From the NCBI GenBank assembly GCA_001931535.1, contig CP016211.1, positions 4,375,573 to 4,439,572 of the forward strand: a stretch of DNA of 64,000 bases. Reading direction: 5' to 3'. The translations under genes were made by a program, and so were the position numbers. Shown in pieces: positions 1,952-45,763 of this stretch (the first letter of the stretch is position 1; the number at the start of each line of letters is the position of its first letter). The DNA comes from Minicystis rosea. Lineage in GTDB: Bacteria > Myxococcota_A > Polyangia > Polyangiales > Polyangiaceae. Under the pieces are notes generated by a model. It saw only the letters and a list, made by a program, of their open reading frames with translations, did not search any database and was not told the origin of the DNA.

Positions 1952-3322
1952 TCACGGCAGGAGCCCCAGCGCCGCCAGCATCGGCGCCTGCTTGGTGCGC
2001 GTCTCCGCGTACTCGAGCGCCGCGTCCGATCCTTCGACGATCCCCGCGCCCGCATAGAGCCACGCCTCGCGCCGCGAGAGCACACCCGATCGGATGGCCA
2101 CCGAGAACGCGCCGTCACCCGCGGCATCGAACCAGCCCACCGCGCCTGCATACCATCCGCGCGGTGCCGGCTCGTGCGCCGCGATCCACCGGATGGCGGC
2201 CTCGCGCGGCGTCCCGCACACCGCCGGCGTCGGGTGGAGCGTACGCACCAGATCGAGCACGTGGAGCGGCCGCGCGAGCGTCGCGGTGATCGGCGTCCAC
2301 AGGTGGTGCACGTTGCGCAGCGTGCGCACCACCGGCACGCTCGGGACACGCAGCTCGCGCGCGAGCGGCGAGAGCGCCGACTCGATGGCGTCGACCACCA
2401 CGCGATGCTCGCGTCGATCCTTGTCGCTCTCGAGGAGCGCCGACGCCGCCCGCGCATCCGCCTCCGGCCGCCGCGGCGCCGAGCCCGCGAGCGCGTCCGC
2501 TTCGACGGCGAGCCCGCTCTTCTGCACGAGCCGCTCCGGCGACGCGCCGAGGAACACGGCGTCTCCGCGCTGAAACGCGAACCGCACGCACTCGGGATAG
2601 AGCGCGCCGAGGCGCGCCAGCACCGCCGCCGGATCGAGCGCCGCGCGCGCCACCACCTTGCAGAGCGCCATGGGCACGACCTTGGTCATCTCCCCGGCGC
2701 GGATACGCGCGAGCGCGTCGTCGATCATCGCGCCCCAGACCTCGGGGCTCGTGCGCTCGAGCAGCGCTTCCGTCGCCTCCGCATGGGGCGCACGATCTCC
2801 GCCCGCCGCGAGCGCCGCGAGCGCCCCCTCGATCGTTTGAGCTCCAACGATCTCCGCGCGCGGCGTCACCGAGCGGAGGAACGCCCGCTCACCGTCCGTC
2901 CCATAGAGCCAGCGCGGCAGCGCAAAGCTCGCGTCGCGGAACGCCGACCACGGCGCCGCGCGCATCGGCTCCGCACGAAACGCGAGCCCACCGAAGAGCC
3001 GCGGCGGCGGCGCGAACGCGGCCTCGGGATGCCGCCGCTCCGCGAGCCGCGCGAAGAGCTCGTCCGCGCCGCGGCGGATCTCCTCGAACCGCGCCTCACC
3101 ATTGCCCTCCACGCGCGCGCTCTCGCCGAACCCGACGAACGAGAACGCGCGCCCACCGCTCTCCGGCACCGGCGAGTCCCAGCGAAGCACCGGCTCCCCG
3201 AGCGCCGCACACGCCGCCGTGTCGATGGGCACGACGGGCGCCGGCACGGTGATCGCGACGAGCGGAGCCGCCGAAGCGGCGAGCTCCCCGATCGCGTGCT
3301 GCACGATGGCGTCCACGTTCAC
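1952..3322 (-). CDS. menF: isochorismate synthase (menaquinone-specific)
   Basis: C-terminal chorismate-binding signature: GTPREAAIRWIAAHEPAPRGWYAGAVGWFDAAGDGAFSVAIRSGV. Start chosen at GTG 3322, which overlaps the ubiE stop (GTGA coupling). The alternative start is GTG 3352. Confidence 0.75.
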   Translation of the reverse strand: MNVDAIVQHAIGELAASAAPLVAITVPAPVVPIDTAACAALGEPVLRWDSPVPESGGRAFSFVGFGESARVEGNGEARFEEIRRGADELFARLAERRHPEAAFAPPPRLFGGLAFRAEPMRAAPWSAFRDASFALPRWLYGTDGERAFLRSVTPRAEIVGAQTIEGALAALAAGGDRAPHAEATEALLERTSPEVWGAMIDDALARIRAGEMTKVVPMALCKVVARAALDPAAVLARLGALYPECVRFAFQRGDAVFLGASPERLVQKSGLAVEADALAGSAPRRPEADARAASALLESDKDRREHRVVVDAIESALSPLARELRVPSVPVVRTLRNVHHLWTPITATLARPLHVLDLVRTLHPTPAVCGTPREAAIRWIAAHEPAPRGWYAGAVGWFDAAGDGAFSVAIRSGVLSRREAWLYAGAGIVEGSDAALEYAETRTKQAPMLAALGLLP

Positions 3323-4044
3323 GACCTCCTCGGCGTGGCCACGTACAGGCACACTACGCCGAACGTCAGCGGCGAGACCTCGAGCACCGAGAGCCCCGCC
3401 TCCTCCATCACCTTCGCGAACACGTCGGGCGGCGGGAACGCCGCGATCGAGCGCTGCAGGTACCCGTACTCCGACTTCCCCGAGAGCGCCCCACCGAGCG
3501 CCGGCACCACTTGATGAATGTGGAACCGCGCCAGCGCCGACAGCACCCCCTGCTTCGGCTCGGACAGCTCCAGGATGGCGATGCGCCCGCCGTCTTTCGT
3601 CACGCGCGCCATCTCACGCAATGCGCGCGGCCGATCCTCCACGTTGCGGATCCCGAACGCCATGCTCACCGCATCGACGCTCGCGTCCGGCAAATCGATG
3701 GCCTGCGCGTCGCCTTGCATGAAGCGGATGCGATCCCCGATCGCTCGCCCCTTCTGCACCGCCACGTCGAGCATCCCGCGCGACGGATCGGTGGCGATCA
3801 CCGCCGCGTCCGGGTGCGTCCGCGCGATCATGATCGCCAGATCGCCGGTGCCCGTCGCCAGATCGAGCCCGGTCTTGCCAGCCGCGAGCTTCATCGCCGC
3901 GACCGTCTTCCTCCGCCACCCCTGATCGAGCCCCAGCGAGATGAGCCGGTTGAGCAGGTCGTAGCGCGGCGCGATGGCGTCGAACATCTCCCCGCTGCCT
4001 GGGCGTGCGCCCGCGGGCGCAGGATCCTTCGTGGGAGCGCTCAT
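3319..4044 (-). CDS. ubiE: demethylmenaquinone/ubiquinone C-methyltransferase (class I SAM MTase)
   Basis: MFDAIAPRYDLLNRLISLGLDQGWRRK...LDLATGTGDLAI...DAVSMAFGIRNV is a typical UbiE/MenG motif. ATG at 4044 (MSAPTKD). Confidence 0.85.
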   Translation of the reverse strand: MSAPTKDPAPAGARPGSGEMFDAIAPRYDLLNRLISLGLDQGWRRKTVAAMKLAAGKTGLDLATGTGDLAIMIARTHPDAAVIATDPSRGMLDVAVQKGRAIGDRIRFMQGDAQAIDLPDASVDAVSMAFGIRNVEDRPRALREMARVTKDGGRIAILELSEPKQGVLSALARFHIHQVVPALGGALSGKSEYGYLQRSIAAFPPPDVFAKVMEEAGLSVLEVSPLTFGVVCLYVATPRRS

Positions 4045-5205: not shown

Positions 5206-5772
5206 TCAGTCCGTCTTGCGCTTCCCGATCGCGCGGATGGGGAAGCGCACGAGATCACCGAAGCGGGTGAAGTCGACCCGCCGAGATTTGATGAAGCCAT
5301 CGAGCGCCGTCTGCGCGACGATGACGAAGGCCAAGAGCCGCTGGGCTCGATCGATGGCGACGCGCGTGGCCGCGGTCTGCGGCGACCGCTGGAGGAGGCC
5401 GACGGCCCGCTCGATCCGGCTCCGCACCGACTCCGCGAGCAGCCGCTCGCGTTCGTCGAAGACCTTGGAGATCATTCGCCAGAAGTCGGTCTCGGCCTCG
5501 AAGAACTCCTTCCGCTCTCCGGGCCGCCACACGCGGCGAACGACGCCCCACCGTTGCAGCTCCGTGAGCGCCATGCTCACCGCGCCCGCCGACATCGACA
5601 AACGCTCGCCGATCACCGCGGCCGGCTGCGGGTCGGCCGTGAGGAAGAGCACGGTCCACACGCGTCCGAGCCCCTTGCGGAACCCCCAGTGCTCGATGAT
5701 GTCGCCGATGGCGTCGGCCACCAGGAGCTCCGCGTCGTGCACGGGGTCGGAGAGTGTTTCGGCTGGGCTCAT
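5206..5772 (-). CDS. GbsR/MarR-type winged-helix transcriptional regulator
   Basis: GERLSMSAGAVSMALTELQRWGVVRRV HTH region; 188 aa; ATG at 5772. Confidence 0.55.
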   Translation of the reverse strand: MSPAETLSDPVHDAELLVADAIGDIIEHWGFRKGLGRVWTVLFLTADPQPAAVIGERLSMSAGAVSMALTELQRWGVVRRVWRPGERKEFFEAETDFWRMISKVFDERERLLAESVRSRIERAVGLLQRSPQTAATRVAIDRAQRLLAFVIVAQTALDGFIKSRRVDFTRFGDLVRFPIRAIGKRKTD

Positions 5773-7566: not shown

Positions 7567-9315
7567 TTACGCGCCGAGGCGCTGCTTGAGCGCCGCGTGC
7601 TGCTGCCAGATGCCTTCGGGCATGTGGCTCTCGAACTCCTTGAGGAAGCCTTCCTGATCGTTGGCCTCCGCGATCCATCCCTCGCGGTCCACGCTGAGCA
7701 GCTCGCTCATCGCCTGCGTGCTCAGATCGAGGCCGCTCGTGTCGATGGCGCCGTCCGTCGGGAGGACGCCGATCGGCGTCTCTTGCCCGGCGGCCGTGCC
7801 GTGAACGCGCCCATGAATCCAACGCAGGACGCGGAGGTTCTCACCGAAGCCGGGCCAGAGGAACTTGCCCTGGTCGTTGGTGCGGAACCAGTTCACGTGG
7901 AAGATCTTCGGGAAATTGGCCTTGTTTTGGCCGAGCTTCAGCCAGTGCCCGAAGTAGTCGCCCATGTTGTATCCACAGAAGGGGCGCATCGCCATCGGGT
8001 CGCGGCGCACCACGCCGACCTTGCCGGTGGCGGCGGCGGTCGTCTCCGAGGCCATCGTCGAAGCGACGTAAACGCCGTGCGACCAATCGAGCGCTTCGTA
8101 CACGAGCGGCGCGACCTTGGCGCGACGACCGCCGAAGATGAACGCCGAGATGGGCACGCCTTCGGGCGCGTCGAACTTCGGCGAGATGCTCGGGCACTGG
8201 CGCGCGGGCGCGGTGAAGCGGCTGTTCGGGTGCGCGGCCGGCTCCTTGAGCTCGGGGCTCCACGCGCGGCCCTTCCAATCGGTGAGGCCCGCGGGCGGCT
8301 GCGGATCGAGGCCCTCCCACCAAGGGCAGTTGTCGGCCGTCATCGCCACGTTGGTGAAGATCGAGTTCTTCATCAAGCTGGCGAGCGCGTTGGGGTTCGT
8401 CTTCTGGCTCGTGCCGGGCGCGACGCCGAAGAAGCCGGCCTCGGGGTTCACCGCCCAAAGGCGGCCGTCGGATCCGACGCGGAGCCACGCGATGTCGTCG
8501 CCGACCGTCCACACCTTCCACCCCTTTTGCGAGGCGGGGGGCACGAGCATGGCGAGGTTGGTCTTGCCGCACGCGCTGGGGAACGCGGCCGCGACGTATG
8601 TGACGTTGCCGCTCGGATCCTCGAGGCCGAGGATGAGCATGTGCTCGGCGAGCCAACCTTCGTCGCGCGCCATCGTGCTGGCGATGCGGAGCGCGAAGCA
8701 CTTCTTCCCGAGCAGGGCGTTGCCGCCGTAGCCGGAGCCCACGCTCCAGATGAGGCGCTCTTTGGGGAAGTGACAGATGAAGCGGCGGTTGGGATCGAGA
8801 TCGCCGAGCGAGTGCAGGCCCTTGCAGTAGTCTTCCGACGTGCCGAGCGCGTCGAGCGCGACCTTCCCCATCCGGGTCATGATCCGCATGTTCGCGGCGA
8901 CGTAGGCGCTGTCCGTGATCTCGACGCCGACCTTCGACGACGGCGATCCGACGGGCCCCATCAGATAAGGCACCACGTACATCGTGCGGCCCTTCATCGA
9001 GCCGGCGAAGAGCGGCGTGAGCTTCTCGCGCGCGTCGGAGGGCGAGAGCCAGTTGTTCGTGGGGCCCGCCTCCTCCTTCGTGTCGCTGCAAATGAAGGTG
9101 AGGTGCTCGGTGCGAGCGACGTCGGTGGGGTTGCTCCGGTGCAGATAACAGCCGGGGAACTTCTCTTGGTTGAGCTCGACGACGGTCCCGTCCGCGAGCA
9201 TCGTTTGGATGAGCGCGCGGTACTCTTCCTCCGAGCCGTCGCACCAGTGGATGCGCTCGGGCTTCGTCAGCCGCGCGACGTCGTCGACCCACGCGGAAAG
9301 ACTCTGGTTGGCCAT
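7567..9315 (-). CDS. pckG: phosphoenolpyruvate carboxykinase (GTP)
   Basis: Collinear with GTP-PEPCK across its length: [79 protein letters not shown] at 9315 ([12 protein letters not shown]); the track start at 9354 is TTG. Confidence 0.9.
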
Positions 9316-9569
9316 AGTGGGGGTCACCTTAGTGCGTGGCACGGACTGCGCCAAGGGGCTGAGATCGCGGAAGGATTAGCGAGAACGGCGCTTCGCGGCA
9401 GCGCGGAGCGTTCGGCCGGGCGGGTTCCGGGCGCTCGGGAGCCGACGCCCGGAACGGCGCCGCCGCGCATGCGCAACTCGCCCGAGAAAACGCGCTGTCT
9501 TCGTCGAAGACGAATCTTCGTGCGGAGAGCTTTTCGCGTCGGGGCGGGTTTCGGCTATCCTGGCGCGCC

Positions 9570-10445
9570 GTGCGGCGCGTCATCGAACTCCCCGACCGTG
9601 GCAAGCTCATCGTAGCCACGGACGTCCAGGGCAACGTGGCCGACTTCGATCGCGTGGCCGCAGTCTTCGAAGAAGCCGTGAGGACCGAAGGTGAAGCCAC
9701 CCTCGTCGTCACCGGCGACCTCGTGCACGGCCCCGAGCTGACCGAAGACGAGTGGCCCGACTATCTCGGCACCTTCTATCACGGCGACTCGAAGACGGTG
9801 CTCGAGCATGCTCGAACGCTCTCCGATCGCTACCCAGGACGCGTGCACTACTTGCTCGGGAACCACGAGCACGCGCACGTGGGTGGGCCGGTGGTGTCGA
9901 AGTTCTTCCCCGACGAAGCGCGTCGCCTCGAGGATCTCCTCGGCGACGATGGCACGCGCCGCATGCGCGCGTGGCTGCGCACGTGGCCGTTCGTCGCCGT
10001 CGCCCGGAACGCTCGCCTGGTGATGATGCACGCCGCGCCGCACGCGCGGATCCGCAGCGCGGAGGACCTCGATCGCCTGCCGCTCGAAGGCTTCTACGAC
10101 GTGCCCCTCGAAGACATGGCGGCCCGCGGGACGCTCGGCGCGCTGCTCTGGGCGCGCACCACGTCCACCGATCGCGGCTACGAGTTCCTGCGCGCGATCG
10201 ATCCCGAGGCCCGCGTCGCCGTGTACGGCCACGACGTGGCGCGCGGCGGCTTCGCCGTCGATCGCGAGCCGCTCCTCTGCGTGAGCACGAGCTTCGGTTG
10301 CTTCGACGGCGACAAGCTCTACCTGGAGTGGGATCTGTCGCAGCCGGCCGAGAGCGCGCGCGAAGTCGCCCGCCGCGGCCTGCGCGTCCTCCACCCCGGC
10401 ACGCCGCCCGTCCACCGCGACGTGCACTTCAGCAGCTATCTCTGA
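9570..10445 (+). CDS. metallophosphoesterase (calcineurin-like phosphoesterase)
   Basis: Motifs GDLVHGP and GNHEHAHVGG; GTG start at 9570. Confidence 0.7.
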   Translation: MRRVIELPDRGKLIVATDVQGNVADFDRVAAVFEEAVRTEGEATLVVTGDLVHGPELTEDEWPDYLGTFYHGDSKTVLEHARTLSDRYPGRVHYLLGNHEHAHVGGPVVSKFFPDEARRLEDLLGDDGTRRMRAWLRTWPFVAVARNARLVMMHAAPHARIRSAEDLDRLPLEGFYDVPLEDMAARGTLGALLWARTTSTDRGYEFLRAIDPEARVAVYGHDVARGGFAVDREPLLCVSTSFGCFDGDKLYLEWDLSQPAESAREVARRGLRVLHPGTPPVHRDVHFSSYL

Positions 10446-10492
10446 GCGAACGCCGAGCGAGCCACGTCCCGAGGACACGCGGCTCGCGTCGA

Positions 10493-10685
10493 GACCGTTG
10501 GGGCTCAAACGATTCCGCTTCGGAGGAGCGCGCGAATCGTTGGTGCTCCAACGATCTGCGTCACGTTCGCGAGCGGACGAACCTCCGGCCTTCCAACGAT
10601 GGTGCGCGCGCTCGGCGACCGTTGGTACTCCAGTGATGTGCCGGCTCGTGCCAGGGCGACGGAGATCGTTTGAGCTCAAACGATC
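10493..10685. repeat. cluster of four ~20-bp palindromic (REP/BIME-like) repeats, consensus ATCGTT(T/G)G-N4-C(A/C)AACGAT
   Basis: Copies read directly: accgttggggctcaaacgat (10494-10513), atcgttggtgctccaacgat (10536-10555, perfect), ccaacgatgg...gaccgttgg (10594-10627), and gatcgtttgagctcaaacgatc (10664-10685, perfect). They lie between the 3' ends of convergent genes. Confidence 0.6.
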
Positions 10686-10694
10686 GCGCCGCGC

Positions 10695-11660
10695 TCAGAA
10701 GTGCATGAACGAGTCGAGCCAGGCACGCCGAGGACGAACGCGCAGCGCCGCGGAGAGCGGCGCGATCATCGGGAAGGCTTCGGGGCGCGCGCGCTTCACG
10801 GCGCCGGGCGGCGCGCCGCCGGGACCGAGCCAGCCGTGCACTTCGGGCGCGCGGACCTTCACGGCGAGCGCGCGGACCGTCGCCCAGATCTTCTCCGGGG
10901 CGACGCCGGGCACGGCGGCCTCGTCGAGCCAGAAGACGTCCGAAGGCGACGGGAGATCGCGCAACGGATCGTGCGGGCCGGCGATGAGGTAGCCGGCATC
11001 GCGACCGCGAACGCGCACGATCCATTCGTTGCGGATGCGGCTCCGCCAGCGGAAGAAGCGCCACACGGCGGGTGACCGCGCGGGGCGCAGGAAGGTGGGG
11101 AAGTCGCGGCGCCACGCTTCCTCGTACCAAGCGATGAGGCGCGGGAGATCGCGCGGGCCGGCGGGGCGAACGTCGAGCGCGCCGCGCGCGGGCAGCGCGG
11201 TGGTCGCGATGGAGAAGTCACGCGCGGGCAGCGCGACGAAGCCGATGCGCTCGTAGAACGCGGGCTCGATGTCCGAGTAGAGGATGGCCGCGTCGTAGCC
11301 GAGATCGCGCGCCTCCTGCATGACGTGAGCGAGGAGCGCGGCGGCGACGCCGCGACCGCGCGCCGAGGGTCGCGTGAAGAGCGCGCCGATGCCGACGGCA
11401 CGAAGCGGAGCACCGCTGCCTTCACGAAGCTGGATCGCGTAACGCTTGAGCGCGGAGACGAGACGGCCACGCGCGTCGATCATGCCGGCGTAGCGCACGA
11501 TCTCCGGGCCCGCCGTGACGAGCTGCTGATCGACGAAGGCGACGTGATCGCGAAGGGAGCGGCCGCCGCTCCAGAGCACGTGCGTCTGGCGCGACGCTTC
11601 CTCGACGAGGGCGGGGCCGAGCGCGGGGACGTAGGTCAGCGCCGGGCTCCGCCGCGTCAT
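10695..11660 (-). CDS. GNAT family N-acetyltransferase (Eis-like, with C-terminal extension)
   Basis: Acetyl-CoA-binding motif RGRGVAAALLAHVMQEARDLGYDAAILYSD; 321 aa; ATG at 11660. Confidence 0.55.
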   Translation of the reverse strand: MTRRSPALTYVPALGPALVEEASRQTHVLWSGGRSLRDHVAFVDQQLVTAGPEIVRYAGMIDARGRLVSALKRYAIQLREGSGAPLRAVGIGALFTRPSARGRGVAAALLAHVMQEARDLGYDAAILYSDIEPAFYERIGFVALPARDFSIATTALPARGALDVRPAGPRDLPRLIAWYEEAWRRDFPTFLRPARSPAVWRFFRWRSRIRNEWIVRVRGRDAGYLIAGPHDPLRDLPSPSDVFWLDEAAVPGVAPEKIWATVRALAVKVRAPEVHGWLGPGGAPPGAVKRARPEAFPMIAPLSAALRVRPRRAWLDSFMHF

Positions 11661-11667
11661 GAGAGCC

Positions 11668-12858
11668 TCACGGGCTCGCGAGGAGATCGTCGATCACCGC
11701 GTCGGTGCCGCGATCGATCTCCTGATCGGTGAGGAACGGGGCCGGCCCGAGCCGCAGCGTCTCGCCGCGCGCGTCCACGTGCACGCCGCGGGCGCGGAGG
11801 CGCTCGACGCGAGGCTCGGGATCGGTGACATGCACGGTGACGAAACCGCCGCGATGCGCGTCGTCGCGCGCGGTGACGATATCGCCGCCGCGACCGCGGG
11901 CGTCGAAGCGATCGAGGATGCGCCGCGTCTGGCGGAGCGAGATGGCGCGCAGGCGATCGGGCGTGAGGCCGAAGCGATCCCAATGTTCGAGGACGGCGTC
12001 GGCGCGGTAGATCGCAGTCGGATCGAAGGTCGCGCCCGCGAAGCGAGCGCCGCCGGAACCGTAGGAGACGCGCGCGCCCTGCGGACGCGACAGCGAGCCG
12101 AAGTCGGCGAACCAGCCCGTGTACACGGGGCGCAGCGTGCTGCCGGCGGGGATGCGCATCCAACACAGGCCTTCACCGAAGGCGGCGTACTTGTAGCCGC
12201 CGGCGACCGCGTAGACGTCGGCCGCGGCCGGGCCCCACGCGAGCGGCACCACGTTGAACGCGTGGTACCCGTCGATGAGCGGAATGGCGCCGACCTCCTG
12301 CGCGCGCGCGATGATCTCGCCGAGGCGCGGCATCACGTAGGCGTCGTCGAAGAGCACGGCCGAGACGGCGAGCATGGCCGTGCCCGGCGTGAGCGCGGCG
12401 AGCAGACGATCGGCGAGCCCTTCGCGCGGCCGCGACGGCACCCACTCGACGATCACGCCCTCCTCCTCCAAGCGCGAGAGCTGGCGGCGCAGCGAGTGGA
12501 ACTCGCTCTGCGTGGTGACGATGCGCGGGCGCGAGGCGAGCGGGAGGCTCGTCATCAAGCGGTAGACGAGCTCGTGCGTGCTCTTCCCGAAGGCGATGGC
12601 GTCGCCGGGATCGAAGCCCATGCGTGCAAGCACGCGCTGGCCTACGCGGTCGAGCTTGGGGAAGACGACCTCTTCCCATTTGTGATCGACGAAGCGCGCC
12701 GCGTCGTCGAAGGCCAGGGCGAGCGCATCGCGCGCGACGTCGGGCCACGCTTGGTGGGAGTGCCCCGTGAGGAGCACGCGGTCCTCACGCAGGAAGCTCG
12801 TGTACGCCGCGCGGAACGTGTCGAGGTCGGCGATGCGATCGGAGACGGCGACCGACAT
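11668..12858 (-). CDS. kynureninase-like class-V aminotransferase-fold PLP enzyme
   Basis: LLTGHSHQAWPD together with GGYKYAAFGEG (PLP-lysine context) resemble kynureninase; 396 aa. Confidence 0.5.
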   Translation of the reverse strand: MSVAVSDRIADLDTFRAAYTSFLREDRVLLTGHSHQAWPDVARDALALAFDDAARFVDHKWEEVVFPKLDRVGQRVLARMGFDPGDAIAFGKSTHELVYRLMTSLPLASRPRIVTTQSEFHSLRRQLSRLEEEGVIVEWVPSRPREGLADRLLAALTPGTAMLAVSAVLFDDAYVMPRLGEIIARAQEVGAIPLIDGYHAFNVVPLAWGPAAADVYAVAGGYKYAAFGEGLCWMRIPAGSTLRPVYTGWFADFGSLSRPQGARVSYGSGGARFAGATFDPTAIYRADAVLEHWDRFGLTPDRLRAISLRQTRRILDRFDARGRGGDIVTARDDAHRGGFVTVHVTDPEPRVERLRARGVHVDARGETLRLGPAPFLTDQEIDRGTDAVIDDLLASP

Positions 12859-36489: not shown

Positions 36490-37203
36490 TCACACCATCG
36501 CTCTCCGCCCTGGTTGGATATCCAGCGACAGCTCGCCTCGCCGGAGAGCCTCCCAGGTTGCCTCCGGTGTGGCCGGTTGCCGAGCACACCACTCGAGATA
36601 CGCGAAGAACGTGATGTCAGGATCCCGCGCCTCCTCATCCGAGACATCAAAGCGCCCTTCGATGGCACGCTCCACCGCTGCCAACAGATTCTCGTGATAG
36701 CGCTCGTACACCGTCAGGTCCCGAAGCCACCGGAAGCGGGCAGTGTCGTGAGCGACCACCTCTGCCGCAGCGTCGCGCACCCGCTCCAGCCAACCCGGGT
36801 AGCACCGGAGCATCTGAAGATCGTAAGCAAACTGATTGCCATCGTGATGCGCGGCCAGGAGATGCTTGAGCACCCGCTCCGGAGAGCTCGCGAGCCCAGA
36901 CGCGTCCAGCGGAGCGATGGCTTGCTCCCAAACGAGAAACGGAAACCGCATCGGTCGATGACGTAGAAGCCGTGCCCGCAACGTCGGACGAACCGGGTGC
37001 TCCACACAGGTCCCGATCGTCTCGGATCGGAAGAGGATGCGCTGCCACATCCGCACGACGCCGAGAAAGATCTGCCAGAGATTGGGACACGGCTCCACCA
37101 GCGCCGCGGCCCGCACCCGCTCGAGGCCGCGATGGACCCGCTCAGGCTCGACCAGGATCAACCTCGCGAACCAGGGTAACGCGCGAACCTCGTCGGTCGT
37201 CAT
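36490..37203 (-). CDS. hypothetical protein flanked by AGGTTGAGC repeat arrays
   Basis: 237 aa; ATG at 37203; no recognisable domain. Confidence 0.45.
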   Translation of the reverse strand: MTTDEVRALPWFARLILVEPERVHRGLERVRAAALVEPCPNLWQIFLGVVRMWQRILFRSETIGTCVEHPVRPTLRARLLRHRPMRFPFLVWEQAIAPLDASGLASSPERVLKHLLAAHHDGNQFAYDLQMLRCYPGWLERVRDAAAEVVAHDTARFRWLRDLTVYERYHENLLAAVERAIEGRFDVSDEEARDPDITFFAYLEWCARQPATPEATWEALRRGELSLDIQPGRRAMV

Positions 37204-37276
37204 ATGCCACTTTTACCGGCCGGGGCCCGCGTTGGACAGGAGTGTTTTAACCGACGCCCTCAAAGCCCTCAGCCCC

Positions 37277-37410
37277 GACCGAGGTTGAGCCCAGCTAGAA
37301 ACCTCGATCGAGGTTGAGCCCAGCTCCCAGCTCACCGGAGCTCCCAACTCATCGGCGAGCCAGAAGCAGCGTGGCCCATCCTGACGCCTCGACCGAGGTT
37401 GAGCTGAGCT
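37277..37410. repeat. 3 direct repeats GA(C/T)CGAGGTTGAGC(C/T)(C/G)AGCT
   Basis: Copies at 37277-96, 37306-25 and 37391-410, between the hypothetical gene and the RAYT-like gene. Confidence 0.6.
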
Positions 37411-37710: not shown

Positions 37711-38664
37711 TCAGCCTACGATACAAGTCGGCAGCAACCCACCAGCAGAACAGCTCGACGGTTCAGCCACGTCGGCGCCGTGAAACACCCGCATCCACCA
37801 TGTTCCGCTCGGGAATGCGACACTACGGAGGCCTGCGCGCCATCGCTCGATTGCAGCTCGATACGACATGCGAAACGAGCGAACGGCTTCCACGGCTCGG
37901 TGCCATGCACCCCCTTGCTCACGCCCAACGGCGAACGTGGGGTTGCGATCTCGCGCGGGCTCGAAGCTCGAAATGCGATCTTGTGGCGAGATCTTCCTCA
38001 CTCGCTCCGGCCCCAGAAAACGAAGCCCCTTTCGTCGCATCTCTGCATGCGCCTCCTGCTCGAGTCGCTCGACCTCGGCGGCAACTTCAGCCCGAAATGG
38101 ATCGGCCCCGCTTCGCTCGATCGAGGGAGGCAGCAGGATGGGCAGGGACACCTCCGCCGGCCATTGAGGATTGCTTGGATCGAAGTAGGTTTGAGGCCGG
38201 CTCGCGCGCAGCACCCCAGTCCCCACCTCGCTCGAGCCGACCATCGCGCCGGGCCACTCGCGCGCATGTCTGACGAGGCCTGCAGCTACGGGGTTTGCGA
38301 GAACATAAGCGATCTTCTCCACAATCGCAGCCCGTGTCAGCAGCCTGACGACGCTCGTGGCCTCATGGTCCCATACCGGCCCTTCCCATCGGCGGAGCAG
38401 CTTTGTACCGAGCGCCACCAAGCGATGAAAGAACTGCAAGAAACGTGGAAGAAGCCCATGCACGTCGGTCACCACGAGATGCAGGTGCGTCGACATCGCG
38501 CAAAATGCGTGCACCTGGAGACCCAATCGATGCGCCGACACCGCAAGCGCATAGGTCAAGAGCTGATTGATGCGCGCGTCGGGTCGGAAGAGGAGATGTC
38601 GACGCAACGTACGTCGGGTAATGAGGTAAGTCGCTCCGAGAACGACCTCGCGAGGTTGGCTCAT
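37711..38664 (-). mobile_element. IS200/IS605-family HuH Y1 transposase, long REP-associated (RAYT)-like form
   Basis: HuH motif MSTHLHLVV and catalytic-Tyr motif IAYVLANPVAAGLV (Y-x3-NPV-AGLV). 318 aa from ATG 38664; TTG 38694 is possible. Repeats flank it on both sides, and the sequence is locally AT-richer. Confidence 0.65.
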
Positions 38665-38779: not shown

Positions 38780-38841
38780 CGCCAACGTGGGTCGGTCCAG
38801 CCACCCAATCCGCCAACGTGGGTTGGCCCAACCCATTGACA
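38780..38841. repeat. 2 x ~31-bp tandem repeat CGCCAACGTGGGTYGG..CC, the second copy palindromic (gggttgg-c-ccaaccc)
   Basis: Read directly upstream of the RAYT-like gene. Confidence 0.5.
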
Positions 38842-40474: not shown

Positions 40475-40879
40475 CCCCCGCCCGTCAACCTCATCGCCGT
40501 CCGCGAGGCAGGCCCGTATGCCGTGCGCGGAGACATCCAGCTCGACGGCGAATCCATCAACTATCGAGCCACGCTGTGCCGCTGCGGCGCCTCGAAGAAC
40601 AAGCCTTATTGCGACGGCTCCCATCACGAGGTCGGATTCGCTGCCTCCGGCGAGCCGCCCTCGGGAAAGACGGACATGCTGGCGGTCCGCAATGGCCCGC
40701 TCGCCATCGACCCGCAGGTCGACGGCCCCCTGCACGTGCGGGGGAACCTCGAGATCACGAGCGGCACGGGGCGCGTCGTCACCCGCGTCCAGGAAGCGCG
40801 CCTCTGCCGCTGCGGCGGCAGCAGCACCAAGCCCTTCTGCGACGGCACCCACGCTCGCATCGGATTCAAATCCGTTTGA
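40472..40879 (+). CDS. CDGSH iron-sulfur domain segment (frame +2 continuation of the ferritin-like gene)
   Basis: Two CDGSH motifs, CRCGASKNKPYCDGSH and CRCGGSSTKPFCDGTH. The frame opens at 40472 (RPPPVNLIAVREAGPYAVRGDIQL) immediately after a C5 run, where the frame-0 ORF loses homology. Confidence 0.6.
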   Translation, partial: RPPPVNLIAVREAGPYAVRGDIQLDGESINYRATLCRCGASKNKPYCDGSHHEVGFAASGEPPSGKTDMLAVRNGPLAIDPQVDGPLHVRGNLEITSGTGRVVTRVQEARLCRCGGSSTKPFCDGTHARIGFKSV

Positions 40880-40892
40880 GCATGCGAGCGCG

Positions 40893-40925
40893 CGCGAGCC
40901 GGATGACCGACGACTGCGGACATCC
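40893..40925 (+). terminator. 9-bp stem hairpin (agccggatg...catccggct) between convergent genes
   Basis: Read directly; no T-tract. Confidence 0.3.
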
Positions 40926-40957
40926 GGCTCGCAAACGCTTCTTCGATCTCGTGGCAA

Positions 40958-42601
40958 TCAAGGCGTCGCGAGCTTGAGGACGATCGAGCGCCCGCTACGC
41001 TCGATGCTCCCCACCAGCCGATCGGGGATCGTGGCACCCGTGATGTTGAGGTGCTCCCGCTTCAACAGCGCGGGCAGGGACAGCTCGACGCGTGCGGGCC
41101 CGATGTCGTGCAGTTGAATCGCCGCAGGGAGCAGGTGCGGATCGTCGACGACGACGACCACGAAGCGCCCTTCGGCCTGAAGCAGCCGCGCGGATTGATG
41201 ACCGATGGCCGTCACGCCCCCGAGCTTGAGCTTATGTGGGGCACTGCACGGCGTCTTCTCGGCCAGGGCACACTCGGCGGCTGCCCGTGAGGTCTTTTCG
41301 GGCAGCACCCCGAAGAACAGATGCCCCTCCGAAAGCGACACGCTCCCGAAGCGCGCGAACGTCGCGCTCCCCTTCGGGCGATCTCCCAACATGCGCAGCC
41401 GCTGCGAAAGCCTGATTCGAGGCACCTCGCTGACGAGCCAAGGCAATGCCACCAAGTACCCGGACCAACCCGCTTCGCGCACCCGATTCACGAGCATCGA
41501 CCCACCCTCGCGGCGCGGCTGATCCCCCGGAAATCCCCAAGCTTGCGAAAACGCCTCCGCGATGTCGACCGAGGCCGATGCGCCCGGCACCGTCATCGAC
41601 TTCGACGGGAGCCAAACCTCGTCCGGAGGCATGGGAAACGCAGCGCCGGTGTCGACGGTGAGGGTGATATCCATCTTCCCCGCGGCTTCGCCCGCGGACA
41701 CGTCGACGGTATCGAAGTAATTGCCTTTGGCCGAGCCCGCGAGCACGTGAGAGCGCGCCGATTCCCACATGCCTTGTGCGGCCAAGAGCCCGCGTTGATC
41801 GGGTGTGATCGGGGCGCCTTCGAGGGCCGCGACGGTGGTGGCGACGCCGTGCAAGAACCCGAGATCGGCGACGCCTGCCGGTGAATAGCGCACCCGCAGG
41901 GCACGTCCCGAGAGCGCCGGCGCCTCCCCACGTCCATCGCTCGTGGAGAGCTCGCGAAGCGCGGCGCGGCCTTGTTTTCCAATGGCCATGTCGACGACCA
42001 CGCCATCACCGTTCACACGCGTCACCACGTGTCGTTGTCCGTGCGTCCATGCGCTGCCATCGCTGCGAAAACCGAGCTCCTCCAGGGCTTTGACGATCAT
42101 GCGATGAAGCGCCTCCGCATCCCTGGCCGGCACGAGCGCGCGCAGCGCCACCGTGGGCGGCTCTCCGGCCACGGCGTCTCGCACCTGCTGCACTTGATCC
42201 GCAGTGAGCGGCTGGGACGAGTCCCCCGGATTGTTCGCCGGGATCAGCGGCCGGAGGGCCTCGATCGTGCGGCGCGCGGCAGGCGATGCGCCGGCGAGCG
42301 CGAACGTGATGGGACGCGAAGGATCGAGGACGGGCGTGAATCGCGCGAGCAAGCTCATCACTCCATCCATCGGGAGCTCGAGCACCTTCATGGGCGCGAG
42401 CCGCGCGAATACGCCGGTATCGATGCTTCCCGAAAGGACCGCTCCGCTCGGCAGCCCCACGACGGCGGGCGCAGGCGGCGGAGGCGGGGGCAGGCCCTCA
42501 CTCGCCGTGGCAATGGCAATCGAGGGTGGAGGCGGAGACGATCCGCCACATCCAACCATGGAGATGCCGAGCGCGAGCCATGCCATTCGACGAAAACGCA
42601 T
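40958..42601 (-). CDS. hypothetical lipoprotein
   Basis: ATG at 42601 (MRFRRMAWLALGISMVGCGG lipobox) followed by a Pro-rich linker; the N-terminal part of ORF ..42781 is discarded. Confidence 0.5.
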   Translation of the reverse strand: MRFRRMAWLALGISMVGCGGSSPPPPSIAIATASEGLPPPPPPAPAVVGLPSGAVLSGSIDTGVFARLAPMKVLELPMDGVMSLLARFTPVLDPSRPITFALAGASPAARRTIEALRPLIPANNPGDSSQPLTADQVQQVRDAVAGEPPTVALRALVPARDAEALHRMIVKALEELGFRSDGSAWTHGQRHVVTRVNGDGVVVDMAIGKQGRAALRELSTSDGRGEAPALSGRALRVRYSPAGVADLGFLHGVATTVAALEGAPITPDQRGLLAAQGMWESARSHVLAGSAKGNYFDTVDVSAGEAAGKMDITLTVDTGAAFPMPPDEVWLPSKSMTVPGASASVDIAEAFSQAWGFPGDQPRREGGSMLVNRVREAGWSGYLVALPWLVSEVPRIRLSQRLRMLGDRPKGSATFARFGSVSLSEGHLFFGVLPEKTSRAAAECALAEKTPCSAPHKLKLGGVTAIGHQSARLLQAEGRFVVVVVDDPHLLPAAIQLHDIGPARVELSLPALLKREHLNITGATIPDRLVGSIERSGRSIVLKLATP

Positions 42602-42815: not shown

Positions 42816-43925
42816 ATGCTCATGAAGCTTCCTGTCTCCCTCACTGCGCTCGCCTTCCTCGCCATGGGCTGCGCCGGCACCGATCTCGGAACCGCGACGG
42901 AGAGTGTCACCTCCGACGACACAGCCGTCTTCGCCGTTCGCGCCGACACCAACACCTGTGCATTCCCTGCCTGCGGCGGCTACTACGTCTCACGCGTCAA
43001 TCGCACCACGACCACCTGTGCCGACGGCACCGACGCGGCCGAGTGCTACGTCGCCGAGCTCGACTTCTCCTCGGTCGGCCTCACGACCCAACAAGAGACG
43101 GATTTGCGCGCTTCGGTGACGACCTCGGCGCTCACGGTCTCTTCGCTCTTCCGCGGCAAGATCTTGAAGAGGAAGTTCGGCACGGCAGGCACGTTCGGCC
43201 GGCTCGCCATCACCGTGCCCTTCGTGTCCCCTGCGCCCGTGACGCTCGACAGCATGGTTTACAAGATGTCGACCATCGGCGGCAATTGCACCAACGAGAC
43301 CTGTCCGACGATCCGCGAGGTCGAGCTCAACACCAGCGTTGGCCGCCTCGTCTCCCACCTCGATCTCACCGGCACGCCCGGCACTGCCACCCAGAAGAAC
43401 GAGGCGCTCGTCGCTGCCTATTCGACGGATTCGATGCTCACCCTGGGCACGCAGGTCGGCGGCTCGACCGATCGTGTCTTCACCGCGACGAGCTATTTCA
43501 CGCCGGTGGATCCGGGCGAAACACTGTGCGGCACCGATTTCACCGACGAGCTCTCGGCGGTGACCGACGGCTTCCTTTGGATGAGCGAGTCGGACTATCC
43601 CGTCGATCCCGTGATGTTCCCCGGCGAAGGCTCGGCCGCGCCCACCGCGGAGCAAGTCCGCGCGCTCGTCGGCTTGCCCGCGGGCACATCCGTGGACGAG
43701 CGCTCGATGGTCGTCTTCCAGTGGGCCGGACGCAACGATCTCGGCATGGCCCCCGAAGAGACCGCGCTCGCCATGCGCTATCGTGCTCTGCGCAAGGTCC
43801 TCGAGCACAACCTGACCGATCTTCGTTTCTACTATTACGGCACCATCCAAGTGCAGGTCTACATCGTGGGCCGCACACGCTGTGGTGATCTCGCGGGCAT
43901 GCACACCGTCTCCATCGAGACCTGA
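42816..43925 (+). CDS. hypothetical lipoprotein
   Basis: ATG at 42816 after GGAG; lipobox LAFLAMGCAG; 369 aa. Confidence 0.5.
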   Translation: MLMKLPVSLTALAFLAMGCAGTDLGTATESVTSDDTAVFAVRADTNTCAFPACGGYYVSRVNRTTTTCADGTDAAECYVAELDFSSVGLTTQQETDLRASVTTSALTVSSLFRGKILKRKFGTAGTFGRLAITVPFVSPAPVTLDSMVYKMSTIGGNCTNETCPTIREVELNTSVGRLVSHLDLTGTPGTATQKNEALVAAYSTDSMLTLGTQVGGSTDRVFTATSYFTPVDPGETLCGTDFTDELSAVTDGFLWMSESDYPVDPVMFPGEGSAAPTAEQVRALVGLPAGTSVDERSMVVFQWAGRNDLGMAPEETALAMRYRALRKVLEHNLTDLRFYYYGTIQVQVYIVGRTRCGDLAGMHTVSIET

Positions 43926-44062
43926 GTCGATCCGCCCAATCACCGGCGGATCGAGCCTCGATGCGCGCTCGCGACGTGACCGAGACAGCGTCGCGCGCGC
44001 CGCTCCGAGGGGAAGACATCTCCCCATCACGCGCGGCGCGGAGCGGCCTCATCGGTCACATC

Positions 44063-45763
44063 TCAGCCGGTGATCTCGACCGTCGTCTCCACGCGCCCGG
44101 TGCGGGCGGAGCTCGCTTGTACGGTCACGCTCCCCTTCCCCTTCACCACCCATGAAAGGCGCTGACGGACAGGCGCCGATACCGAGCGTGCGAAGGAGGG
44201 TGTCGCCGATCGCTCGCAGCTCCCCCACCCTTCGAGATGGCCCACCACTTGTTCGTTGTCGGTGCCCACGACCGTCACGTCGCCGCCGAGCACGAGGCGC
44301 GCGCGCAGCGGATCGCTCCACGGCAGCTCGCGCGCCGACGAGAGCACGTACGTGGGGAGGAAACCGTCGTTCTGCACGATGGCCGTGATCCGTGAGACGC
44401 CGGAGCCCACGGGCGTGACCGTGACCTCCGCCACGCGCACGCGCGGCGTCAGCGCGGCGATGCGGAAGAACACCTTGGCTTGCCCCTCGCAGAGCGTGGC
44501 AATTTGCTCCTCGGGCGGGTTCCAAACGCCGATGCGCGGATCATAACCGCCGACCTCCACCGGGCCGAGCTGCGGATGCACGAACGGCCGCCAAGCACCC
44601 ACGACGCGACCACCGTTCTTGTCGCGATCCCAGCGGCCGATGGCCTCGATGTCGTCGCGCGTGCGGCGCGAATAGTTGAGGACGAAGGGCCGATGCACCG
44701 TGAGGCCGGCCTGCTTCCAGAAGTCCCACAGCTCGCAGACCATGGCCACGGTCCCGCGCTGCACGTACGCGAAGGTGCTGAGATCGCCGCGCAGCGGTTT
44801 GTCGGGCTCGTAGGTGAACTCCTCGAAGCCGCTCACCATCGGATAACCGGCGTACGCCTCCGCCCACTCGCCGATCTGCAGATACAAGTTGAGATCGCGC
44901 TGATCCATCTTGCGATCGGGCATGTCTCCCGCAGGGCGGATGTAGCAGCCGCCATAACAATGGAGGTTGAGCCACGCGAAGATGTTCGGGTGTTGGGTGG
45001 CAAAGACGGTGACCGCGCGCGACTCGGGCTCGCTGGTGGCGAAGGCGCCCGCGCCGATCTGCTTGGGCTCGGGGGCCCAGTCGTAGGGGAAATTGCGGTT
45101 CATGTCCGTCTCGCTGTTCGACAGGAAGTTGTCGACAGGCACGGTGAAGCCGTCCCAATTCTCGATCATGCCCTCGGGATAGAGGCTGTAATACGGGCCG
45201 GGGTCCTCGAGGCGCCGCGGCAACATGAGGCCGGGAATCGTCGGGCTGCAAACGAACTCGCCCGCGGGATCTTCGCGGCGCATGAGGCGCGCGCGGCCGT
45301 CGCCGTCGACGTCGCCGGCGTTCCAATAGGGCGCGGTGCGGCCGAGCCGGCCGTCACGTGGGTTCGAGCGAACGTATGCGCCCGTGCGGAGGATCTGCTC
45401 CGCGCCATCCGGGCACATGCGCGGAAGCACGTACACGAGGATGTCGTCACGCAAGATGGCGGCGAGGTGCGGGGGCAGATCGTGAATCGGGGCGCCCGAG
45501 GCGTGGGCCGTGATGAGATCCTCCGCTATCGCGAGCGCCACGCACGAGCCGGCGAGCTCGGAGGCATGCATGTTGGCGTCGACCCACGCGGCGGGGCGGG
45601 TGCGATCGGGATCTCGACCGATGGTGAGCAACCAAAGCTCGCGCCCCTCCGGCGAGGTCGCCAGGCTTTCGAGGCGCACGAACGAAGGGTTTGCTTCGGC
45701 CCACGCTCGAACGATGCGCGTGATTTCATCGTAGCTCGGATACTTCGTGCGAAAGAGCGACAT
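44063..45763 (-). CDS. M14 family zinc carboxypeptidase-like protein
   Basis: Zinc-binding context WVDANMHASELAG and NLHCYGG; ATG at 45763. Confidence 0.7.
   Translation of the reverse strand: MSLFRTKYPSYDEITRIVRAWAEANPSFVRLESLATSPEGRELWLLTIGRDPDRTRPAAWVDANMHASELAGSCVALAIAEDLITAHASGAPIHDLPPHLAAILRDDILVYVLPRMCPDGAEQILRTGAYVRSNPRDGRLGRTAPYWNAGDVDGDGRARLMRREDPAGEFVCSPTIPGLMLPRRLEDPGPYYSLYPEGMIENWDGFTVPVDNFLSNSETDMNRNFPYDWAPEPKQIGAGAFATSEPESRAVTVFATQHPNIFAWLNLHCYGGCYIRPAGDMPDRKMDQRDLNLYLQIGEWAEAYAGYPMVSGFEEFTYEPDKPLRGDLSTFAYVQRGTVAMVCELWDFWKQAGLTVHRPFVLNYSRRTRDDIEAIGRWDRDKNGGRVVGAWRPFVHPQLGPVEVGGYDPRIGVWNPPEEQIATLCEGQAKVFFRIAALTPRVRVAEVTVTPVGSGVSRITAIVQNDGFLPTYVLSSARELPWSDPLRARLVLGGDVTVVGTDNEQVVGHLEGWGSCERSATPSFARSVSAPVRQRLSWVVKGKGSVTVQASSARTGRVETTVEITG

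Follow-up and report, generated by a model that had tools for sequence, protein, structure and literature searches.

The window analysed, a 64,000-nucleotide stretch of Minicystis rosea DNA with a G+C content of ~70%, contains a metallophosphoesterase gene and a GNAT acetyltransferase gene that are truly convergent, and the spacer between their stop codons houses an entire array of palindromic units (Table 1). The first-pass annotation had reported four palindromes between two gene 3' ends, two of them perfect, and inspection confirmed the location and the presence of all four subject to small corrections: a fifth unit (unit 3) had been overlooked, and while unit 5 is perfect throughout, unit 2 is perfect in its arms but has a centre, TGCT, which is not self-complementary. 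The 20-bp core of unit 5 (ATCGTTTGAGCTCAAACGAT, 10665-10684) is extended to 22 bp by a flanking G and C, includes TTTGAGCTCAAA as the core of the unit, and lies such that the end of the unit is 9 bp from the GNAT stop codon (10695-10697). Unit 3 is in register with the other units of the repeat family (D1), and the start-to-start distances of units 1-5 are 42, 45, 37 and 47 bp. No coding signal was detected in any phase of the gap (10446-10694) by phase-specific GC3 analysis, and a small gene in the spacer was rejected, the ORFs there being spurious and devoid of such a signal.

Table 1. Features of the window relevant to the palindrome array.
Feature	Position	Strand	Sequence or identification	Remarks
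Chorismate-binding (MenF-like) gene	1952-3352	-		contains sixth copy
Sixth copy	2832-2851		ATCGTTTGAGCTCCAACGAT	exact arms
MarR_2-like gene	5206-5772
Metallophosphoesterase gene	9570-10445	+	Pfam PF00149; M. rosea A7982_03751	100% protein identity
Spacer	10446-10694	.		249 bp; non-coding; between two stop codons
Unit 1	10494-10513		ACCGTTGGGGCTCAAACGAT	degenerate, T2>C; 6/8 arm pairs complementary
Unit 2	10536-10555		ATCGTTGGTGCTCCAACGAT	both 8-bp arms perfect; carries the G/C variant of positions 7/14; PWM score 29.6
Unit 3	10581-10600		ACCTCCGGCCTTCCAACGAT	right half-site alone kept; 4/8 arm pairs complementary
Unit 4	10618-10637		ACCGTTGGTACTCCAGTGAT	degenerate, 3 mismatches; 5/8 arm pairs complementary
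Unit 5	10664-10685		GATCGTTTGAGCTCAAACGATC	perfect 22-bp palindrome; canonical form of the family; PWM score 35.1
GNAT acetyltransferase gene	10695-11660	-	Pfam PF13527/PF00583	convergent with metallophosphoesterase gene
Repeats around RayT-like ORF	37273-37404 and 38781-38826
RayT-like Y1 (HUH) transposase ORF	37711-38655	-	NCBIfam NF047646	~314 aa; long C-terminal extension

When the window was searched with the pattern ATCGTTKG-N4-CMAACGAT allowing up to three mismatches, 7 matches were recorded against 0.54 expected, a number reached by none of 100 shuffles, and the core pattern GTTKG-N4-CMAAC gave 4 matches against 0.02 expected.

The same convergent arrangement is annotated at the corresponding locus of a Minicystis MAG (L108; 90% protein identity), where the gap is 0 bp and the two stop codons abut, TGA being followed directly by TCA. 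Extending the comparison for insertion polymorphism, as the first-pass annotation had proposed, to three other relatives established gaps of 3 bp (L109), 1 bp (L158) and 12 bp (L159) at the same junction, and since all four relatives have only 0-12 bp there, the 249-bp spacer was gained in the lineage of M. rosea. A T2>C change common to units 1, 3 and 4 (left ACC), together with one asymmetry common to all five units (centre NNCT on the + strand), indicates that the array arose by local tandem duplication in one orientation and then decayed. The linkers between units are GC-rich and loosely alike but no longer alignable. Units 1, 3 and 4 have undergone non-compensatory changes that leave the numbers of paired arm positions given in Table 1.

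In three of these relatives a cytochrome-c/FTR1 gene is located between the metallophosphoesterase and GNAT/kynureninase genes (L109 10877-12832, L158 10875-12854, L159 10883-12892); as it is missing from both Minicystis genomes at this junction, the junction that now carries the array must have been rearranged earlier. The spacer was considered as a remnant of that gene, an origin rejected on finding no similarity.

A sixth copy of the palindrome, situated 7.8 kb from the array within the chorismate-binding gene, is read in frame as ATC GTT GGA GCT CAA ACG ATC and, flanks included, is identical to unit 5 at 26 of 27 bases. The alignment of MenF-like proteins across this site, which falls in a variable region, contained no indel, thereby establishing that the copy was made by substitution and not by insertion; on the same alignment, the notion that coding copies represent in-frame insertions comparable to the Rickettsia palindromic elements was rejected. 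The Minicystis MAG retains the copy at the corresponding position with one mismatch (L108 3736); four more distant relatives lack it.

A motif scan of a genome collection containing one genome per species gave scattered single matches in all phyla among the matches listed, and a very different picture in Polyangia and other Myxococcota, for which more than 20 exact-arm copies were found among the matches listed against an expectation from base composition of ~1 or fewer. These copies have in common a preference for the centre AG-N-T, and the Polyangiaceae MAG CAYLJT01 accounts for at least 7 contigs with the palindrome among the matches listed. The first-pass annotation had held that a motif unique to this spot would speak against its proposals; given the copy at 2832 and those in many Polyangia genomes, the motif is clearly not unique. 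That the array is a local tandem repeat without wider meaning, resembling other palindromes by chance, would suit the loosely alike GC-rich linkers and the decay of three units; it is nevertheless extremely improbable in the face of the nearly unit 5-identical copy 7.8 kb away, the excess of matches in the window, the excess of exact-arm copies in Polyangia, and the family-wide centre preference.

The density of sites differs considerably among relatives, amounting to 5 secondary sites in 42 kb of CAYLJT01 (12 per 100 kb), 2 loci in the 64-kb M. rosea window, and none in 74 kb of the relatives L109, L158, L159 and L160. Sequence common to the copies is limited to ~22-26 bp, and the surrounding spacers do not align. 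The location of the copies is equally distinctive: 8 of 13 intergenic site-loci in Polyangiaceae/Polyangia are in convergent gaps, which account for 13.7% of the intergenic sequence there (P = 8.5e-5), a statistic that, like most of the loci, rests on crude GC3-based gene calls made in this analysis, and several of these copies fill convergent gaps of 31-42 bp exactly. One further copy lies 65 bp beyond a tRNA gene, between tuf and secE. Some 40% of strong Polyangia sites (11 of ~27) are inside genes, where they occur in all three frames of unrelated proteins, PanC, ThiD-like and MenF-like among them, without indels.

Lone 8-mer half-sites outside palindromes numbered 1 in CAYLJT01 against 2.1 expected and were mildly enriched in the window; because they are not enriched as such, the unit is considered to be the whole palindrome. 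On the same counts, a signal resembling DNA uptake sequences was rejected. A phage origin was likewise discarded, IMG/VR having yielded 27 single, chance-like matches. A literature search returned no publication with the palindrome sequence, and none on REPs or RAYTs in myxobacteria.

Several related palindromes were recorded in the course of these scans. The sister palindrome ATCGTTGGCWWGCCAACGAT forms tandem arrays of 2-3 units spaced at 36-77 bp (L138 97-206; L141 1158-1303; L150 1127-1196; L154 814-869; L156 423-498) on contigs of 68-71% GC from rhizosphere or soil metagenomes, the arrays being intergenic and located both upstream and downstream of genes. The 20-mer ATCGTTGG(A/G)(A/T)TTCCAACGAT is nearly identical in the matches from Bifidobacterium, Actinomyces and Promicromonospora (L006 4999, L049 1049, L046 4060, L059 1463, L062 7083, L074 7751), and probably represents a separate conserved site. 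A metagenome contig of 56% GC (L147 1895-2045) carries five overlapping units of CAGAC(G/C)ATCGTTTGGGATCAAACGAT(C/T)GTCTG with a spacing of 18-48 bp, a longer palindrome around the same core.

The gene at 37.7 kb that the first-pass annotation had described as RAYT-like proved to be real, in that the ORF matches NF047646, a family of REP-associated tyrosine transposases, with an E-value of 7e-13 over profile positions 7-144 of 146, at a score (48.6 bits) below the curated cut-off of 80; Pfam gave no match for the ORFs of this region. By inspection, the ORF contains the HUH motif HLHLVV and the tyrosine motif YVLANPVAAGLV, and it lies in a stretch of lower GC (0.62). The further proposal that the array palindromes are its recognition sites did not survive examination of its flanks, which carry other repeats: three copies of CCTCGAYCGAGGTTGAGC, containing the palindrome CCTCGATCGAGG, are present beyond the 3' end of the ORF, and two copies of GCCAACGTGGGTYGG are located upstream of it. 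Within the window these two repeats are not dispersed, and both differ from the array palindrome; they may be the cognate REPs of this ORF. The nearest match resembling the array palindrome, at 36917, is weak (score 14) and ~775 bp away, such that the ORF is not a RAYT gene flanked by copies of that palindrome.

These results bear directly on the possibility that the palindrome is a REP/BIME-like element, a hairpin-forming repeat that multiplies in some Polyangiaceae and survives mainly in harmless gaps after stop codons, the five-unit cluster then being a BIME and the resemblance to a MarR operator secondary or coincidental. Consistent with this are the absence of the spacer from four relatives, which amounts to the presence/absence polymorphism at orthologous sites seen with REPs, the strong enrichment in convergent gaps including those filled exactly, the uneven density among relatives, the RayT-like gene in the window, and the sister-palindrome arrays in metagenome contigs. 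However, REPs are almost exclusively extragenic, and the intragenic share of strong Polyangia copies, arisen without indels, makes a REP in the strict sense doubtful. Neither do the five units alternate in orientation with set linkers as in a BIME, all having the same orientation and unalignable linkers; the RayT-like gene has other repeats on its flanks, the shared sequence is confined to the palindrome and its immediate borders, and the same sequence appears elsewhere as a promoter operator (vide infra). Overall, such an element is considered a rather unlikely explanation of the array.

The folding of the array was assessed for the four full-length units, and two of these four outperformed shuffled sequences: unit 2 (-13.3 kcal/mol; z -4.45) and unit 5 (-12 kcal/mol; z -3.76). 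Neither unit 1 (-5.6 kcal/mol; z 0.08) nor unit 4 outperformed its shuffles, and z values for the entire spacer were -3.3 and -5.3 on the two strands. Searches for a terminator-like site with a U-tract were negative for either strand of 9300-11800, as was a search for a sigma-70-like promoter at the spacer; no Rfam family was found in 9500-11700 at E-values up to 10, nor across the window at the gathering score.

Two other convergent gaps in the window provide a useful reference. That at 40875-40962 contains a 12-bp GC-rich stem (-40 kcal/mol; z -3.8) and that at 43920-44068 two strong hairpins, in each case without a U-tract and with sequences unrelated to the palindrome family, and such idiosyncratic G+C-rich hairpins presumably represent what is normally found at 3' ends in this genome.

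Against this background, the units might be bidirectional RNA hairpins that serve both 3' ends as terminators lacking a U-tract or as 3'-end protectors, comparable to the mycobacterial TRIT. The array does sit just past and between two stop codons, a stop-codon-proximal placement repeated at L003, L014, L040, L087 and L102; the copy beyond the tRNA is similarly placed, the perfect symmetry would suit both transcripts, units 2 and 5 and the spacer as a whole fold better than shuffles, and there is a precedent for a palindrome of conserved sequence at gene ends (PMC3152330). Intrinsic terminators, however, combine a stable G+C-rich stem with a U-tract, and the array has a U-tract on neither strand and AT-rich stems that are weak for a genome of 70% GC; the two convergent gaps just described rely on unrelated and far stronger GC-rich stems. 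The non-compensatory changes in three of the five units, the lack of any need for a hairpin to conserve its sequence across genera, the failure of promoter-located relatives to keep arm complementarity, and the limited overlap of predicted TRITs with mapped termini in M. tuberculosis (bioRxiv 10.1101/2022.06.01.494293) all argue in the same direction, rendering this explanation distinctly unlikely and leaving the structured terminator of the first-pass annotation unsupported. Extended non-conserved stems were rejected as evidence of selection for hairpins, being unspecific and equally frequent in chance matches in other phyla (4/30 versus 10/87).

In other Myxococcota, copies of the palindrome are found in the promoters of salt/osmotic genes and next to genes of the MarR family. 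Promoter-region sites were found in L097, L157, L165, L162, L164, L028, L161, L163 and L065. In L097 the palindrome abuts the MarR start, in L157 it is located between a divergent MarR gene and a CLC channel gene, and in L165 the MarR homology begins ~50-70 bp downstream of it; the three orthologous MarR proteins, from loci fetched independently, have 50-59% mutual identity, and gave generic MarR matches only in NCBIfam and PDB. Small winged-helix genes homologous to each other, in a Kofleriaceae MAG (L028) and a metagenome contig (L157) that were both retrieved with the motif, also have the palindrome 98-140 bp upstream. Five additional loci (L161-L165), fetched by means of the winged-helix protein and not the motif, gave an equivalent result: in L161-L163 the palindrome is 161-176 bp before the annotated start of the winged-helix operon, and in L164 and L165 it precedes a trehalose gene directly upstream of that operon. 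Seven palindromes are paired with an nhaA-I riboswitch scoring above the Rfam gathering threshold 8-78 bp downstream, the pairs preceding the wHTH-DUF5985-DUF5985 operon and trehalose-6-phosphate synthase/phosphatase genes, and genes for a CLC channel and for MscS likewise have the palindrome upstream. As cognate binder, the wHTH protein encoded by that operon was considered first and then ranked below MarR, next to which sites occur in a greater variety of contexts; its named matches included no Minicystis homolog.

Thirteen sites that had not been selected by exact match were particularly informative, in that the core TTTG/CAAA was invariant and the outer arm positions varied independently, being complementary in only 2-8 of the 13. 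An invariant core with independently varying outer arms is characteristic of half-sites recognised on double-stranded DNA and not of a hairpin, and two half-sites with independently conserved arms are what would be expected of a MarR operator. Taken together, these comparisons with other genomes identify the palindrome there as a predicted operator linked to a MarR-type regulator, and the dimeric-regulator operator family, one of the options named in the first-pass annotation, is thus the one best backed by related genomes through its promoter sites and MarR adjacency.

The salt/osmotic island to which many of these sites belong was recorded on several Myxococcota-like contigs (L028 6657-7223; L157 5861-6916; L161 2032-3135; L162 623-2900 and 5806-6963; L163 54-1149; L164 7445-10925; L165 7742-10976). 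Its nhaA-I (Na+/Li+) riboswitches precede the winged-helix gene with two DUF5985 genes, otsAB-like genes and NhaA, with the palindrome before each, and MscS, CLC channel, OmpA, protein kinase and MarR genes are found nearby. This organisation, of which no description was found, suggests that a riboswitch and a DNA-binding regulator act together in controlling these genes. At actinobacterial loci of Acidimicrobiia/Nanopelagicales-like origin (L050 4951-5835, L060 5602-6248, L065 115-674), the palindrome ATCGTTTGG-NN-CCAAACGAT adjoins a gene for a MarR-like protein with 35-41% identity to the myxobacterial MarR, which suggests an old pairing of operator and regulator that is common to different phyla.

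Equivalent surroundings were not found for the Polyangiaceae/Polyangia copies: none of 19 palindrome loci had an nhaA-I riboswitch, and osmotic genes were likewise not nearby. Next to the array there is neither a promoter nor a riboswitch nor a gene that looks regulated; tblastn detected no ortholog of the L097/L157/L165 MarR within the window, the MarR_2-like gene there belonging to another subfamily, and where a MarR operator would be expected in a promoter, the window has its copies between convergent genes and within a coding sequence. Being outside any promoter, the array cannot be a classical operator.

On the combined evidence, the array probably represents a group of misplaced binding sites for a protein, and neither a transposase-driven repeat nor an ordinary terminator. 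The more specific proposal that its units are MarR-type operator sites outside any promoter, with a role as decoy or roadblock or surviving as a relic, is the reading preferred here, and is regarded as plausible if somewhat short of probable. According to this proposal, the units would be copies of a 20-bp operator with two half-sites and the consensus A-T-C-G-T-T-T/G-G - A-G-N-T - C-A/C-A-A-C-G-A-T, which a MarR-family dimer would read as double-stranded DNA, the regulator controlling a salt/osmotic regulon in related Myxococcota. A unit of ~42 bp bearing one site would have been amplified in tandem within the 249-bp insertion between formerly abutting stop codons, units 2 and 5 staying intact as units 1, 3 and 4 decayed. 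M. rosea would then be expected to encode an orthologous MarR able to bind units 2 and 5, and the protein-bound cluster could titrate the regulator as a decoy, or could separate the two convergent genes as a roadblock or insulator, unless it is simply a neutral relic. The manner in which coding copies arise, by substitution in three frames of unrelated genes, supports the operator proposal.

Certain features nonetheless count against operator sites. With a unit spacing of 37-47 bp the helical phase is not strictly kept, and the density in the window and in CAYLJT01 hints at copy numbers above those of a normal regulon, possibly extending to a high copy number in some Polyangiaceae genomes. The main tension, however, resides in the Polyangiaceae distribution, since enrichment in convergent gaps is the opposite of what an operator would lead one to expect, and the stop-codon-proximal placement resembles that of a REP or the mycobacterial TRIT. 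One conceivable reconciliation is that some copying process makes copies which are then purged from promoters, where the resident repressor would misregulate. Alternatively, in some Polyangiaceae the palindrome, bound by a MarR-like protein, could have been recruited to short convergent gaps as a bidirectional, possibly stress-releasable roadblock terminator or insulator, replacing the intrinsic terminators lacking in genomes of 70% GC and with the five-unit array as an amplified example; this is thought very unlikely.

Should the array be bound by a MarR protein, it would constitute a natural example of operators amplified outside promoters, bearing on the origin of decoys and roadblocks and on how convergent units are separated in very GC-rich bacteria without canonical terminators. 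If it is instead REP-like, it would be the first such element described for Polyangiales. In either event, the significance of the array itself is modest pending a whole-genome count and binding evidence. The comparisons have also brought to light an apparently undescribed Myxococcota regulon that combines the MarR operator with nhaA-I riboswitches before trehalose, ion-channel and DUF5985 genes.

Three known systems invite comparison. The CosR/EctR operators are, like the units described here, pseudo-palindromes made up of two half-sites and spanning ~20 bp. CosR is an osmoregulator of the MarR type, for which PMC8070244 quotes the consensus TTTGA-NN-TCTAA; the palindrome core TTTGA-NN-TCAAA matches this consensus. 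The related Myxococcota sites in osmotic/salt promoters and beside marR correspond in turn to the classical autoregulatory layout, with the palindrome placed before otsAB-like, CLC, MscS and NhaA-neighbouring genes and the regulator known as a generic MarR only. Unlike CosR/EctR operators, the copies in the window occupy a convergent gap and a coding sequence and not a promoter, five of them are in tandem, and binding is predicted only.

REP/BIME elements associated with RAYT (TnpA-REP) proteins are similar in being short palindromes after stops or between convergent genes, in occurring as clusters, and in varying in presence among relatives; they differ in that no RAYT gene flanked by copies is present in the window, many palindrome copies are intragenic, the array units share one orientation, and no conserved asymmetric 5' tetranucleotide is evident.

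The TRIT of the RNIE paper (PMC3152330), a palindrome conserved at the ends of genes and reportedly confined to Mycobacterium, resembles the palindrome in the conservation of both sequence and structure, in being bidirectional and tied to stop codons or convergent genes, and in belonging to a high-GC genome without canonical terminators. The likeness is one of description and concerns a motif of another phylum, and a concentration at gene ends of the TRIT type, significant as it is in convergent gaps, is accompanied by many copies in promoters and genes. For the palindrome, moreover, sister lineages provide independent evidence that a regulator recognises it in double-stranded form, a point of difference from the TRIT.
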